In this document: positions 18,251 to 39,771 of the stretch, piece after piece
How the letters are laid out: every line of letters starts with the position of its first letter
How positions within the stretch are numbered: the first letter of the stretch is position 1
Source: a virus
Virus record (IMG/VR): IMGVR_UViG_3300027704_000015
Location: 15,963-79,962 of that record
Strand: one strand, 5' to 3'
Length of the DNA stretch: 64,000 nucleotides
Notes under the pieces: model-generated
The model's input: the letters and a program-made list of their open reading frames with translations, nothing else
What the model was told of the DNA's origin: nothing
Database searches by the model: none
Translations under genes and position numbers: made by a program

Positions 18251-18772
18251 ATGGGAAGAATGTTTGGAACAGGGAGAGAGCCCTTAAACCTACTCAAATC
18301 AAATATCATTTATGGTATGGCTAATAGTAAAAGCAATATGGAGGCTGCTAGGTTCTTGAGGATATCCTACCCCACCTACAAGAAATATGCCAAGATGTAC
18401 AAGGATGATGCTACAGGTACCAGCTTGTTTGAAATGCATAAGAACCAGCAAGGCATAGGGGTAGCTAAACCTTACAATGTCAAGAAAGGAAAATACAGCA
18501 TGGAGGATATCCTGGAGGGTGCTTATCCAGAGTATCCTGTAAGTAATCTTAAGAAAAGAATCATAACCAACTCCATCCTCGAGGAATGCTGTGACAATTG
18601 CAGCTTTCAGGAGAGGAGAGTAGTGGACTATACTGTACCCTTGCTCCTGGACCATATGGATGGCGATAGAACCAACCATAGACGCTGGAACCTTAGGATG
18701 TTGTGTTATAATTGCTACTACCTGATGGTGGGTAACATCGGTGGACGTCCAGTCAACACAGATAATCATTAA
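18251..18772 (+). CDS. HTH + HNH endonuclease
   Basis: AARFLRISYPTYKKY HTH; CxxC...LDHMDGDRTNHRRWNLRMLCYNC. Confidence 0.85.
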   Translation: MGRMFGTGREPLNLLKSNIIYGMANSKSNMEAARFLRISYPTYKKYAKMYKDDATGTSLFEMHKNQQGIGVAKPYNVKKGKYSMEDILEGAYPEYPVSNLKKRIITNSILEECCDNCSFQERRVVDYTVPLLLDHMDGDRTNHRRWNLRMLCYNCYYLMVGNIGGRPVNTDNH

Positions 18773-18775
18773 ATT

Positions 18776-18808
18776 AGTTGCTTATCCGAGATATATTTCG
18801 TATCTTTA
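18776..18808 (+). promoter_or_regulatory. Bacteroidota-type promoter
   Basis: AGTTG-N20-TATCTTTA. Confidence 0.75.
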
Positions 18809-18885
18809 TAATATAAATCAATTGGATACCCTAATAGATCGGGGGAGCGCACCTACTATTTAATTTTTCACCCCACCCTTAACTA

Positions 18886-18918
18886 TAAAGATACGAAATT
18901 AAATGCAGGGAGGCAACT
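18886..18918 (-). promoter_or_regulatory. Bacteroidota-type promoter on the minus strand, convergent with 18776
   Basis: Reverse complement reads AGTTG-N20-TATCTTTA. Confidence 0.7.
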
Positions 18919-19118
18919 AAATCCATGTTTATCTTTGTCTCAATAGGAGTCATGCGGTGGAGGGGGCGGGGAACCCAAGGCTTAATAACTTTCTGATAAC
19001 TTTCCGGGAGAGAGTTGCCACCGATGTAACGCCTTGAGTATGAACTAGTTAGCGGCGCTCAGTTTAAACACAAAGGTTTAATAACTTTTGCAAATTAACT
19101 CAAGATAACTGTGGGATT

Positions 19119-19152
19119 AGTTGTAGATATGCAGATTATTTCTTATCTTTAG
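19119..19152 (+). promoter_or_regulatory. Early promoter
   Basis: AGTTG-N21-TATCTTTA. Confidence 0.75.
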
Positions 19153-19191
19153 GTATAAATAAAGCGGAGATACTAATTAAATTACAATAAA

Positions 19192-19483: not shown

Positions 19484-19516
19484 AGTTGGAGATACGAGAT
19501 ATTTTTCGTATCTTTA
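19484..19516 (+). promoter_or_regulatory. Early promoter (AAA gene)
   Basis: AGTTG-N20-TATCTTTA. Confidence 0.8.
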
Positions 19517-19565
19517 TGTATATAAAGAGGGAGGAAGCTCCTAGTAATAATTAAAAACTAAATCA

Positions 19566-20747
19566 ATGAGTGCAATCAACGAACTATTAATCGGCTACTA
19601 CAGACCGGAAATGTTTACAACTACAACTATCAAGGTGTATAACACCGATGGCAAGGAATGTCATACCAACAACTATCCTCACAAGCTATGGAGCAATCTT
19701 AAGAAGTCGGCTATGGCGGAAGGCAAGGCTCTACACTATACAGGTGAAGGCTGGAGGAAAGTGGATATGACTCATTACCTACAAGCTCAGATGGAGGTGA
19801 AAATACCTGAACCAGCTCCAGAGGTACCAACTGAGCATGCTGAACTTCTCAACCTTATACATACATCATATGACCTTAAACCTAAGGGCTTGAAAATGAA
19901 CGAGTTAAAGTGGAAGTATCTGATGAGATCAGGTATGAGAGGTAAAAATATAATGATGACAGGTCCAGCTGGATGTGGTAAAACGATGGCTGCTAAAGCT
20001 CTAGTTAACGCATTGGATAGACCTGACTTCTATTTCAACCTGGGAGCTACTCAAGATCCAAGAGCTACCCTAATAGGTAATACTCATTTCAATAAAGAGC
20101 AAGGCACCTACTTCTCAGAGGCTTTATTTGTTAAAGCTATTCAGACCCCTAACGCAGTAATACTATTGGATGAGCTATCAAGAGCTCACCCTGATGCATG
20201 GAACATCTTAATGACGGTACTTGACTCAGGTCAAAGGTATTTACGTTTAGATGAAGCTTCCACACAAGCTACTATCAATGTAGCGGATGGAGTAACCTTT
20301 ATCGCAACCGCGAACATAGGTAACGAGTATACGTCGACCAGGGTGATGGATAAGGCTTTGATGGATAGATTCACAATTATCGAGATGGACCTATTGAGCG
20401 CATACGATGAAGCAGAACTGCTGAAATATATGTTTCCGTTAGTAGCTAGCAAGGATATTGAAAGCATTGCGGGCATCACAGATCTAACTAGAAAGGAATG
20501 TAACAATGAAGAGTCTAGATTATCCAGTCCAATAAGCACACGTACAGCCGTAGAGATGACTTCCCTTATATACGATGGCTTCACGTTACAAGAGGCGTCA
20601 GGTATTACTATCTACCCTCAGTATAGTACGGATGGAGGGGTAGACTCAGAACGCACATTTATCAAGCAGATAGTTCAGAAGTTCTGTGATGATGGTACTG
20701 AGAAGGACCTATTCAACGTGGATGAAGAGGCAGGTCAAGAGATATAA
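19566..20747 (+). CDS. MoxR/CbbQ/NirQ/CobS-type AAA+ ATPase
   Basis: Walker A GPAGCGKT, Walker B ILLDE, ATAN sensor, ALMDRF arginine finger. Confidence 0.9.
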   Translation: MSAINELLIGYYRPEMFTTTTIKVYNTDGKECHTNNYPHKLWSNLKKSAMAEGKALHYTGEGWRKVDMTHYLQAQMEVKIPEPAPEVPTEHAELLNLIHTSYDLKPKGLKMNELKWKYLMRSGMRGKNIMMTGPAGCGKTMAAKALVNALDRPDFYFNLGATQDPRATLIGNTHFNKEQGTYFSEALFVKAIQTPNAVILLDELSRAHPDAWNILMTVLDSGQRYLRLDEASTQATINVADGVTFIATANIGNEYTSTRVMDKALMDRFTIIEMDLLSAYDEAELLKYMFPLVASKDIESIAGITDLTRKECNNEESRLSSPISTRTAVEMTSLIYDGFTLQEASGITIYPQYSTDGGVDSERTFIKQIVQKFCDDGTEKDLFNVDEEAGQEI

Positions 20748-20756
20748 TATAATGAT

Positions 20757-21120
20757 AATCAATGAGTTAGCAAGGCTGGTAGGTATAGAGAGGACAAGGT
20801 TCCAAAGTAACTGCAAGGTGAAAATAGACAAGGACTTCAAAAACCCAACGGCCAAGCTTACTCATGGATTTTCAAGAGATCTAAAAAACAGGGATTGCAC
20901 TCCCAAGAGACGGGTAACCCAAAGTGGCGGTAATTAACTCCACTAAGGGGGACTTGGTCCCTAAACACGGCACACTGTGGGTTGTGTGTCGAGCATGGTT
21001 TTTTGGTATAGGTAGTTCATACGTTACAATGTGTTGAACACATGAGTATAGAAAGTAGATATATAAAGAACAGGTGCACTGTTTGTTGAGAGACAAAACG
21101 GGTACTGAGATATAAAGAGT
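20757..21120 (+). ncRNA. Large structured non-coding RNA, family unknown
   Basis: Long stem 20757-20870; multibranch domain closed by 20881-20889/20998-21007 with five hairpins; complementary loops TGCAC/GTGCA; G-U pairs favour the + strand. Confidence 0.65.
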
Positions 21121-21128
21121 AAAAAAAA

Positions 21129-21386
21129 TTGAAAACAAAAAAATTACATATGGAAACTAAAGAACACATACACTTACAGAAGCTTATAGCATTAGAGGAA
21201 CGAATAGAGCTCTATTATATATGTAATAGTGAGGAGGACAAGGAAGGGAATCAAGGATTCATTACAGACTTGCGACGTAAGTGCATGAAAGATACCACTC
21301 ATAGAATAGGAAAACACTACATGCAGACTATGAACCATCTGTGGCATCAATATAAGATAAATGGTAACATGAAAGAAACAATATGA
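21129..21386 (+). CDS. Hypothetical protein (similar to C-terminus of 37985..38437)
   Basis: Shared LxKLxxL...C...F(I/V)TD...TMNxL(W/Y) pattern; start may be the ATG at 21150. Confidence 0.55.
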   Translation: MKTKKLHMETKEHIHLQKLIALEERIELYYICNSEEDKEGNQGFITDLRRKCMKDTTHRIGKHYMQTMNHLWHQYKINGNMKETI

Positions 21387-22824: not shown

Positions 22825-22857
22825 AGTTGGTAGTCTGAGATATTTTTCTTATCTTTA
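22825..22857 (+). promoter_or_regulatory. Early promoter (consensus copy)
   Basis: AGTTGGTAGTCTGAGATATTTTTCTTATCTTTA. Confidence 0.8.
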
Positions 22858-32146: not shown

Positions 32147-32177
32147 TTGGTAGTGTGAAGATTATTTCGTATATTTA
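32145..32177 (+). promoter_or_regulatory. Promoter upstream of the structured RNA
   Basis: AGTTG-N20-TATATTTA. Confidence 0.75.
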
Positions 32178-32187
32178 ATATAATTAA

Positions 32188-32400
32188 ATGGGATAGGTAA
32201 CTATCTCATCAGTTATAAAACATGGAAGATACATGTTAAGAGTGGACGCGACTATGATTAAGACCGGCATCAATCGAAAGCAATGTAGCACACCTCTGAC
32301 TCTTCCATAGCTCTACGAACAAAGGCCACCTTCACGTGGTGTAGGGTGTTAAGGTTAAAGTTGCTCACTATTATATCCAACTGTTTAACCCACTGAGAGC
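32188..32400 (+). ncRNA. Structured RNA or leader downstream of an early promoter
   Basis: GNRA-capped hairpin 32188-32209 plus several further stems; no ORF. Confidence 0.45.
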
Positions 32401-32423
32401 CTTTATTTTTAAACAAATTAAAA

Positions 32424-32678
32424 TTGATATATAATATGAAACGATTAACCGCACATCTAGCTCACGTTAAACCTATTAAAGAAAAGGTAGGTAACGAGGG
32501 TAAATTAAAAACGATATTGAACAATACATTATCAGTTCGCAACCTTAGATCACAAGCTGATGTTCACGAAGCTCTATCTAAGATTCGTTCCAACCACACT
32601 ATTGCAACATGTACCAAGCATAATCATGCTACCTGGAATGTAGGTGATGAAATGTGGTACACTTCTAACGAAAAATAA
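32424..32678 (+). CDS. Hypothetical protein (ATG start probably 32436)
   Basis: ORF after the structured leader. Confidence 0.55.
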   Translation: MIYNMKRLTAHLAHVKPIKEKVGNEGKLKTILNNTLSVRNLRSQADVHEALSKIRSNHTIATCTKHNHATWNVGDEMWYTSNEK

Positions 32679-38537: not shown

Positions 38538-38783
38538 ATGGATAGCTATACTGATAATTACGATACATTTAGTGATGATGATGAATTACTAAACGCAGCT
38601 ATTAGTAATACATATGAATATTTAGTTAGTGAGCTAGAGATATCTGAACTTCCAGCTGGTACATGGATGCTTAAGCAACCAAGGCGAGTTGCAACTATAG
38701 ATCAGCTTATAGAGTACTTTACAGGAACAGAAGAGTATGAGAAGTGTGCTGAACTAGTAAAGATAAAACAAACAATAAATTGA
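38538..38783 (+). CDS. Protein with UVR-like motif
   Basis: LIEYFTGTEEYEKCAELVKIKQ. Confidence 0.65.
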   Translation: MDSYTDNYDTFSDDDELLNAAISNTYEYLVSELEISELPAGTWMLKQPRRVATIDQLIEYFTGTEEYEKCAELVKIKQTIN

Positions 38784-39063
38784 CCGCTAGTACTTTTATT
38801 AGCTGCTCAAATGGACGAGGGTTCGACTCCCTCCATCTCCACAACAATTATATGTGAAAACATATAATACAATAAATTACATATAAAGTATATGTAATTA
38901 CATATAATATGGGGATGACTTGGATATTGACATTGAGATAAGGATTTAAGGAAGGTCACGCATAACAGGCGAACATGTTGAAATGGCAATGGCGGCTTAA
39001 TAAAGTCCCCAGAACCGAACGGCGTTAACAGGGCAAGTCGTATAAGCCCGGTGGTGGTGGACC
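38781..39063 (+). ncRNA. ssrA: Circularly permuted (two-piece) tmRNA; tag (A)GEHVEMAMAA
   Basis: T-arm GAGGG-TTCGACT-CCCTC (38817-38833) and 3' acceptor strand CATCTCC-A (38834-38841) lie upstream of the 5' strand GGGGATG (38911-38917), giving G3:U70. D-loop-like ...TTGAC. ATAACA then resume codon GGC (38968) to TAATAA (39003). Confidence 0.9.
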
Positions 39064-39078
39064 TATAAGGTATAAATT

Positions 39079-39771
39079 ATGACAATGATGAGTAGACCAA
39101 TAATAAAGAAAAAGATTAAGCGTAACAATGTTGTGTATAATCTTGAGTTATGGAATACGATAGATGATGATTTTATACCAAATGTATCAGAGCCACCCCA
39201 ATTCCGAAAAGATTTCTTTAATGATGTAGCTATGGATGGTAAATGGCCTGACTCAACAGAGTATCAAGAGAGGTTCGATGATTGGTTTGATAATCTATCT
39301 AAAGACAAGCAAATTCAATATGCTAGAGCTATTGATGAGTCTAATAGGGTTATAATATTAATGGTGTGGGAGCAAGTTAATAAATTAGATAAGCATGAGT
39401 TGTTCAATAATAACATCAGGCAGTTTAGTATCTGGTTCTCAGGTTTGGATCCAGCTGATATTGACTTCTACATGACACGTATAATGTCTAAACGTCGTTT
39501 GATGCCTGCTGAGTTTAGAAGTGATAGCCCTGAGTTATTATCTGCTGAAGAGATAACTAACGCGTTACAAGGTGTATATGATAGTATAAATGATGATTTA
39601 ATTCGAGCAACAACTATTAACGGTCTACTGTGTATTAGCTGTACTGATGAATCAAGATTAGCTAAAGTAAAAAAGCATATGATAATGCATGGTAGTATAT
39701 TACGTGATTATCGCAAGAAAGAAAACATCAGCGGTAATATGATTTATACATATATATTTTCTAAACCGTAA
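39079..39771 (+). CDS. Hypothetical protein
   Basis: 230-aa ORF directly after the tmRNA; no SmpB motifs recognised. Confidence 0.65.
   Translation: MTMMSRPIIKKKIKRNNVVYNLELWNTIDDDFIPNVSEPPQFRKDFFNDVAMDGKWPDSTEYQERFDDWFDNLSKDKQIQYARAIDESNRVIILMVWEQVNKLDKHELFNNNIRQFSIWFSGLDPADIDFYMTRIMSKRRLMPAEFRSDSPELLSAEEITNALQGVYDSINDDLIRATTINGLLCISCTDESRLAKVKKHMIMHGSILRDYRKKENISGNMIYTYIFSKP

Follow-up and report, generated by a model that had tools for sequence, protein, structure and literature searches.

The AAA gene and the gap that follows it

The DNA analysed here (the window, 64,000 nucleotides) is part of a 79,962-bp IMG/VR contig with an estimated completeness of 46%, and all of its large open reading frames lie on the + strand. 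A gene for a CobS/MoxR-like AAA+ ATPase is followed by a 402-nt gap (20748-21149), beyond which a 78-aa ORF begins at the ATG at 21150 (Table 1). The small ORF could be assigned to no family, and a search for relatives of that ORF returned none. The closest match to a cultured phage is to Microcystis phage Mel-JY01 at 52% amino-acid identity, which is not close. Two genes upstream there is an HNH endonuclease-like ORF (18251-18772; PHROG 10822, 6.7e-13), which adjoins a second ORF-less gap, of 419 nt (18773-19191).

A promoter-like consensus of ~45 nt (AGTTG...TATCTTTA..TATAAA(T)AAAG; AGTTG..N..TATCTTTA..TATAAATAAAG) is present in nine copies in the window, and we take it to resemble the Bacteroidota -33 TTG / -7 TAnnTTTG promoter type. 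The consensus (AGTTGGNAGTCTGAGATATTTTTCTTATCTTTAnnTATAAATAAAG) is found at 18776, 19119, 19484, 22825, 23075, 27577, 32689 and 32784 on the + strand and at 18918 on the minus strand. A scan of the window shows no copy between 19531 and 22824. Because the copy at 19484-19530, just upstream of the AAA gene, has its next neighbour at 22825, the AAA gene seems to share one transcription unit with the gap and several small ORFs. The positions of these promoter copies suggest both that the AAA gene and the gap are co-transcribed and how far the transcript probably extends. The initial annotation had likewise placed the element inside the AAA operon, with which the lack of a consensus copy between 19.5 and 22.8 kb agrees.

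Table 1. Coordinates (window numbering) of the features in and around the gap downstream of the AAA gene.
Feature	Position	Strand	Remarks
Promoter consensus copy upstream of the AAA gene	19484-19530	+	Presumed transcript start for the element
AAA translation initiation region, -6 to +12, AAAUCA AUG AGU GCA AUC	19560-19577	+	Proposed target of the complements
CobS/MoxR-like AAA+ ATPase gene, 393 aa	19566-20747	+	Pfam AAA_5 1.4e-17; weak CbbQ_C match; PHROG 249 'porphyrin biosynthesis'
Module A, optional irregular hairpin of ~114 nt	20757-20870	+	Window, L090, L092 and L093 only
P1 hairpin, GGGA-UUGCAC-UCCC	20891-20904	+	Covarying stem, invariant loop
P2, long nested hairpin	20906-20962	+	P2a 20909-15 with 20952-59; P2b 20918-20 with 20947-49; P2c 20923-27 with 20940-44
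Region C, AAACACGGCACACUGUGGGU	20963-20982	+	Apparently single-stranded; near-invariant in 14 homologues, recognisable in ~10 distant ones
Helix X	20983-21012	+	20983-20991 with 21004-21012; U-run in loop (20992-21003); RNAalifold consensus
P4, AUAC/GUAU flanks around AUGUGU-UGA-ACACAU	21019-21049	+	Flanks invariant
P5 hairpin, AACAG-GUGCA-CUGUU, optional	21069-21083	+	10 of the 12 rows that reach it
Conserved 3' tail AGAGACAAAAC..GGGUACU, AUAUAAAGA box and A-rich leader to ATG 21150	21084-21149	+	Near-family conservation

A modular non-coding region

Relatives of the gap are scarce in the collections searched. No homologue was found by blastn against a phage collection, and blastn and nhmmer against 80 IMG/VR loci identified with the AAA protein, together with 49 of their whole contigs, gave only A-rich noise; among these 80 relatives the sequence 3' of the AAA gene is hypervariable and differs in length between 0 and 780 nt. 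Scanning metagenomes with the AAA protein yielded closer relatives (79-100% amino-acid identity), 14 of which have a homologue of the gap. The comparisons below use these 14 close relatives and about 10 distant metagenomic ones, in an unfitted MAFFT alignment of the 14 homologues (A1) and a wider alignment of 18 sequences (A5).

The alignment divides the gap into two modules, module A (20757-20870) and module B (~20875-21149). Module B is present in all 14 homologues, and in six loci it starts at the AAA stop codon. Full-length matches to a model of P1, P2 and region C (R1) are confined to the near family, and distant loci match it from region C onward only. A second model, of region C to P4 (R2), finds one copy in the window's own genome and one copy per contig in 5 of the 49 related IMG/VR contigs, always directly 3' of the AAA gene; because it is single-copy on each contig, the C-P4 block can be ruled out as a general class of promoter. 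P1 and P2 thus belong to the closest clade only, and the C-P4 block to a wider one. Exact and gapped pattern scans of IMG/VR gave either nothing or chance matches, with P1-P2 on no other IMG/VR contig, and all three matches from a pattern scan of genome contigs are chance ones as judged by R1. The gap is modular, in that an optional hairpin is followed by a series of independent hairpins and then by an A-rich leader, and these parts differ in phylogenetic range.

The gene downstream of the conserved block also varies: near-clade loci have a member of the 78-aa family there, locus L105 has a zf-dskA_traR gene, and other clades have yet other genes. Since the block accompanies the AAA gene even when the downstream gene is a different one, we read it as the 3'UTR of the AAA gene. 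The gene that follows the block in the clade of L104 and L105 encodes a DksA/TraR C4 zinc finger (L105 coordinates 2554-2805; Pfam PF01258, 8.8e-08), to which the 78-aa ORF at the corresponding place in the window is unrelated.

The initial annotation regarded the gap as non-coding, and the homologues agree, with no reading frame conserved in position or phase. All three frames of the + strand contain 4-11 stop codons in every homologue. There is no conserved ORF on the minus strand, which is U-rich and has open stretches of 41-94 codons that shift in phase, through 1-nt indels, between close relatives. As read from the aligned sequences, the pattern of conservation is that of an RNA and not that of a protein.

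Folding of the + strand (20748-21150) gives -102.1 kcal/mol against -83.9 +/- 5.2 for shuffled sequences (z = -3.53), and none of 100 shuffles is as good; the minus strand of the gap has a z of -2.04, and P1-P2 in relative L097 one of -4.6. For P2, the + strand is the more stable of the two in 12 of the 14 sequences, with 29 G-U pairs out of 265. The genome is A+T-rich, and the hairpins of the gap are stable and rich in G+C. Scored on the unfitted alignment, our structure has a covariation score of 0.203, compared with 0.094 for shuffles (0/500 reach 0.203) and at most 0.135 for slid controls. RNAalifold recovers only fragments of P2 from the MAFFT alignments, because the variable P2 arms are not structurally aligned, and realignment with R1 is no better; P2 was therefore evaluated by per-sequence folds and an arm-swap test. 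Covariation in P1, P2 and P4 supports the earlier proposal that a conserved RNA structure is encoded on the + strand of the gap.

All the stems listed at the outset can be found in the sequence, at about the positions given for them. The P1 hairpin, GGGA-TTGCAC-TCCC, was correctly identified, and its closing pair is found as GC, CG, AU and UA. Next to it, GGG-TAA-CCC, AGTGG..CCACT and GGGAC-TTG-GTCCC had been listed as three hairpins; their bases are indeed paired, but not as separate elements, and together they make up the single nested hairpin P2. Taken separately, GGG-TAA-CCC and GGGAC-TTG-GTCCC are only 55% and 67% paired, and their bases pair across with each other instead. P2 forms 16-21 bp in all 14 homologues when each is folded individually, despite widely differing arms, and 8 of its 10 outer pairs are changed on both sides in the unfitted MAFFT alignment of 14 sequences. 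When arms are swapped among eight independent lineages, a sequence's own arms give -20.6 kcal/mol and those of others -14.3 +/- 1.3 kcal/mol (p ~1e-4). The apical loop of P2, CGGUAAUUAACU (20928-20939), is conserved. Two further candidates in this part of the gap were set aside on inspection by eye: pairing of the P2 loop with the AAA 5'UTR or with GGGGUUUAAUAC consists of weak A/U matches with no covariation, and a frameshift or readthrough signal (A AAA AAC) beside P1 is present in only some homologues of the alignment, at too short a spacing.

Downstream of P2, alignment tests support no pairing in region C. Helix X has moderate support: 85% of it is paired in the wide alignment, and two of its pairs have changed on both sides. 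The hairpin ATGTGT-TGA-ACACAT, which forms the core of P4, is strongly supported in the wide family, where 4 of 5 pairs are changed on both sides and 97.7% are paired over 18 sequences; it is invariant in the near family and takes the forms UACGU/ACGUA, UCCGU/ACGGA, ACACAU/AUGUGU and GACCAU/AUGGGUC in the wider one. The P5 hairpin, AACAG-GTGCA-CTGTT, is present in 10 of the 12 rows that extend that far, but is deleted in L095/L096 and has an altered loop in L100. A different hairpin, CUGUUUGU-UGAGAG-ACAAAACGG, is possible at 21079-21105 and excludes P5, because CUGUU is common to both; by eye, a U-to-C change in L094/L102 breaks P5 and improves the alternative (U-G to C-G), and the two could act as a switch.

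The arrangement of these elements bears on a different kind of explanation, transcription punctuation, in which the AAA gene would be terminated or attenuated by the 5' part, with its hairpins followed by the U-run, and the next gene would receive its promoter and leader from the 3' part. A run of six to seven U residues is conserved across the wide family and in some homologues is abutted by a GUGGUU/GACCAC hairpin; there is also a sigma-70-like TTGACA-N16-TATAAT in L102, TATAAAG-like boxes lie near the next ATG, and the AUAUAAAGA box is similar to the 3' portion of the promoter consensus. However, the GUGGUU/GACCAC hairpin is not conserved (72% paired, with neither covariation nor support above shuffles), and helix X, which has better support, has the U-run in its loop. 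A scan for intrinsic terminators finds nothing but a 5-bp stem at 20966-20979, away from the U-run. The -10-like hexamer carries G at its second position in 5 of the 12 sequences, the phage promoter consensus itself is absent, and the block goes with the AAA gene and not with the variable gene downstream. We therefore regard punctuation as an improbable account of the gap.

The structure originally proposed was a single ornate RNA of ~370 nt, possibly of a new class comparable to GOLLD and ROOL, in which CUAAAAAAC/GUUUUUUGG would close a multibranch domain and P1 and P5 would form a kissing loop. The gap is non-coding and folds better than shuffles, as such an RNA would, and several of the hairpins listed for it are real, although two were mis-assigned. 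The closing A/U helix fares poorly: CTAAAAAAC/GTTTTTTGG is paired in 72% of cells with no changes on both sides, the A-side varying and the U-run being fixed, and its ends are unpaired in most homologues. A further hairpin, CGGCACAC/GUGUGUCG (also CGGCACAC/GTGTGTCG), is perfect in the window, and in 13-14 of the 18 relatives two of its inner pairs are lost. The long stem at 20757-20778 and 20849-20870 is real, with compensatory changes in L090, L092 and L093, but it is absent from most homologues, so that module A, like P5, is dispensable in relatives. The TGCAC and GTGCA loops are complementary in 9 of the 10 sequences that have both, yet both sides are invariant save in L100, where the change breaks the pairing; with P5 deleted in L095/L096 and its loop altered in L100, the kissing loop has no comparative support. 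What we see is a row of modular hairpins with different phylogenetic ranges, and a single ornate RNA is very unlikely.

Nor is there any sign of kinship with GOLLD or ROOL. A covariance-model check against Rfam 15, whose families include riboswitches, ribozymes and Y RNA as well as GOLLD and ROOL, gave no match in the gap, either at gathering threshold or at E <= 10; over 20600-21300 at E <= 10 there are four noise matches, with 13-19 bits against thresholds of 34-70, and the one match in the window that reaches its gathering threshold is to a permuted tmRNA (38792-39000). GOLLD and ROOL, which have been seen by cryo-EM as RNA-only complexes (10.1101/2024.12.08.627333), share with the gap that they are non-coding, structured and phage-associated. 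They are far larger, whereas the gap holds some five serial hairpins totalling ~270 nt, includes optional modules and matches no model.

Complementarity between the gap and the AAA start region

A 10-mer in P1, GAUUGCACUC (20893-20902), is the perfect complement of positions +3 to +12 of the AAA gene, G-AGU-GCA-AUC (19568-19577). Across the 80-kb genome the P1 loop has a single complement, which falls at the second AAA codon. Perfect 10-mers are common when the whole 80-kb genome is the target (16 for the 400-nt query). When 109 genes were each set against the 400 nt that follow them, 2 had a complement of at least 10 nt, and the one other than that of the AAA gene is made of A and T only. The target, ATGAGTGCAATC, is identical in 16/16 near-family loci. 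AAA codons 2-4 are each represented by a single codon in 13/13 genes, including three synonymous sites, compared with 23 of 272 (8.5%) of the other columns in which the amino acid is conserved. Because both partners of the long-range helix are invariant, there is no base-by-base covariation within the near family.

Two other clades lack P1 and have a different AAA N-terminus, and each has a complementary pair of its own, AUCGGAUA / UAUCCGAU in the L104 clade and ACACACACUAUG / CAUAGUAGUGUGU in the L002/L112 clade. The complements in these clades sit 5-50 nt after the AAA stop codon. Dinucleotide shuffles focused on the start region (-12 to +14) and on the 75 nt that directly follow the stop codon yield p values of <=0.001, 0.006 and 0.005, the last two being those of the two other clades, and a Fisher combined value of ~5e-6, figures that are to be read in the light of the post hoc searches through which the cross-clade complements were found. 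An unfocused shuffle test gives p = 0.03 for the window and 0.15-0.24 for the L104 clade. The L006/L109 clade has no convincing complement to the start region.

Partition functions for whole mRNAs, which at about 1.3 kb are unreliable and ignore ribosomes, folding kinetics and co-transcriptional folding, predict the 5'-3' helix as part of the minimum free energy structure (MFE) in the window (1,482 nt folded, P = 0.99), L097 (1,352 nt, P = 0.93-0.97), L104 (1,326 nt, P about 0.9) and L112 (1,305 nt, P about 1.0). In L106 (1,344 nt), the start-region pairing of which includes a G-U pair, the helix has a P of about 0.55 and is absent from the MFE. Within the near family, the covariation of the P1 stem shows, at the level of the sequences compared, that the local hairpin is selected as well, and this hairpin would compete with the full 10-bp duplex.

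Module A contains both a copy of the AAA start region and a complement of it. Its 5' arm (20757-20767) is an 11-nt copy (AATCAATGAGT), and its 3' arm (20860-20871) is complementary to AAA positions -6 to +6, perfectly over 12 nt in L093 and 11 nt in L092 and with one mismatch in the window. A general start-context motif does not explain this pair of sequences, because AATCAATG is found at just 1 of 109 gene starts and is not a common start context. In L100, L102, L110 and L095/L096, inserts of 90-160 nt occupy the site of module A, between the AAA stop codon and the P1 homologue; they are unrelated and ORF-like and, by eye, would encode short hydrophobic peptides. As far as these loci allow us to judge, the interval from the AAA stop codon to P1 is a hot spot for insertions.

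The short repeats, direct and inverted, on either side of the AAA gene could also be features of the DNA and not RNA signals, as traces or substrates of events in which cassettes are inserted, deleted or inverted. The 11-bp direct repeat of AATCAATGAGT at 19561 and 20757 would fit with this, as would an insertion hot spot that accepts either module A or short ORF-like inserts. Against such a role, the direct copy in L092 and L093 has decayed to 7-9 nt and the complementary arm is still perfect over 11-12 nt. One of the repeats is inside an ORF at its start codon, the pairing in L106 uses a G-U pair, and the hairpins, with 29 G-U pairs, favour the + strand. An origin of these sequences as DNA repeats is accordingly a most improbable one.

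A 3'UTR proposed to mask its own start region

We propose that the gap is a modular 3'UTR of the CobS-like AAA mRNA in an uncultured large marine phage, and that it masks the start region of its own message in the manner of icaR, a reading to which we give about an even chance. P1 would base-pair with the initiation region of the same mRNA, ~1.3 kb upstream, and mask the region of the start codon; in some lineages the 3' arm of module A may pair with the initiation region as well. The structures with their covariation and the conserved complementarity are seen in the sequences themselves. We infer that this pairing takes place in vivo, and masking of this kind could hold AAA translation down or set its timing, or link it to decay or stability of the mRNA. 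P2, region C, helix X and P4 may serve as a scaffold or for stability, may bind proteins, or may signal 3' end formation or processing.

A more elaborate version of the proposal is a tentative one, and we think it somewhat unlikely to hold as a whole. The gap would then be a self-contained feedback device with P1 as its clamp and module A as a switchable hairpin, in which the decoy copy of the start sequesters the second complement; P2 and the C-P4 block would be modules recognised by a protein or an RNase. Such an RNA would be a new class of cis-regulator in phages, controlling the timing of an early gene, in a host that is probably one of the Bacteroidota and does not rely on Shine-Dalgarno sequences.

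It is also conceivable that one or more stable non-coding RNAs are processed from the operon transcript and act in trans on a protein or other RNAs, perhaps through the apical loop of P2 (GGUAAUUAACUCC) or region C, the complementarity to the AAA start being incidental or secondary. Conservation is strong in the P2 loop and in region C, the hairpins are stable and rich in G+C, as noted above, and the block is single-copy and locus-specific, all of which would suit an RNA of this sort. Against it, there is no promoter copy of its own and no conserved terminator hairpin beside the U-run, and complementary targets of the P2 loop are not enriched within the 80-kb contig. A trans-acting RNA also leaves unexplained both the invariant synonymous sites at the AAA start and the matching pairs in other clades, and we consider it unlikely. 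A Y RNA / Ro60 module was rejected, as there is no TROVE or VWA_2 gene in the 80 kb (46% of the genome) and no Y RNA match in the Rfam search.

Masking of the AAA start by its own 3'UTR would have few parallels. To our knowledge, regulation of a bacterial or phage gene by its own 3'UTR is documented in a handful of cases (icaR, hbs). In the sib retroregulation of int in phage lambda, an RNA structure 3' of a gene controls that upstream gene, an RNase III site leading to 3'-to-5' decay. Like sib, the AAA element is an RNA structure 3' of a phage gene, but it would pair with the start region, which sib does not. In the icaR mRNA of Staphylococcus aureus, the 3'UTR pairs with the ribosome-loading region, which blocks initiation and promotes cleavage by RNase III (PMC3868564). 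The phage 3'UTR also complements the initiation region of its own mRNA, a likeness of proposed mechanism and not of membership. It differs from icaR in that the proposed target is the start codon and codons 2-4 and not the Shine-Dalgarno sequence, and in that the complement lies in a hairpin loop beside further conserved hairpins, joined in some lineages by a second complement and a copy of the start. The hbs mRNA of Bacillus subtilis has pairing between its 5'- and 3'-UTRs, which protects against RNases and couples translation with stability (PMC5737220). The phage message has a comparable predicted long-range pairing of the two ends of one mRNA, although this pairing is predicted to cover the coding start, and that of hbs involves the 5'UTR.

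The gap also resembles the entries of a catalogue of 8,495 candidate structured RNAs from IMG/VR, which requires at least three IMG/VR regions for each (PMC10690425), in being a conserved intergenic RNA structure in contigs of uncultured phages. A long and apparently empty gap in a phage genome can be a composite of modules with different evolutionary ranges and need not be one large RNA. The comparative data by themselves point to end-to-end pairing that may be kept, with different sequences, in several clades of abundant uncultured marine phages. If the masking proposal is right, the AAA mRNA would provide a clean natural example of masking of a start region from the 3' end, with a possible decoy and anti-decoy switch in module A, and the P2 loop, region C and P4 would constitute a new set of conserved RNA hairpins.

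Several other features of these genomes are of some interest. Upstream of the C-P4 block, distant loci (L104, L105, L106, L001, L002, L006, L109 and L112) have 2-4 direct repeats of (A)GTTATGAA(C/A)A together with runs of G. In the window, ATAACTTT, a word related to the GTTATGAA repeat on the opposite strand, is repeated at 18985, 18996 and 19081. Another ORF-less gap, of 289 nt, is located at 32147-32435, and a circularly permuted (two-piece) tmRNA gene at 38749-39091 (Rfam tmRNA_permuted, 55.7 bits) has the tag GEHVEMAMAA as predicted by ARAGORN.
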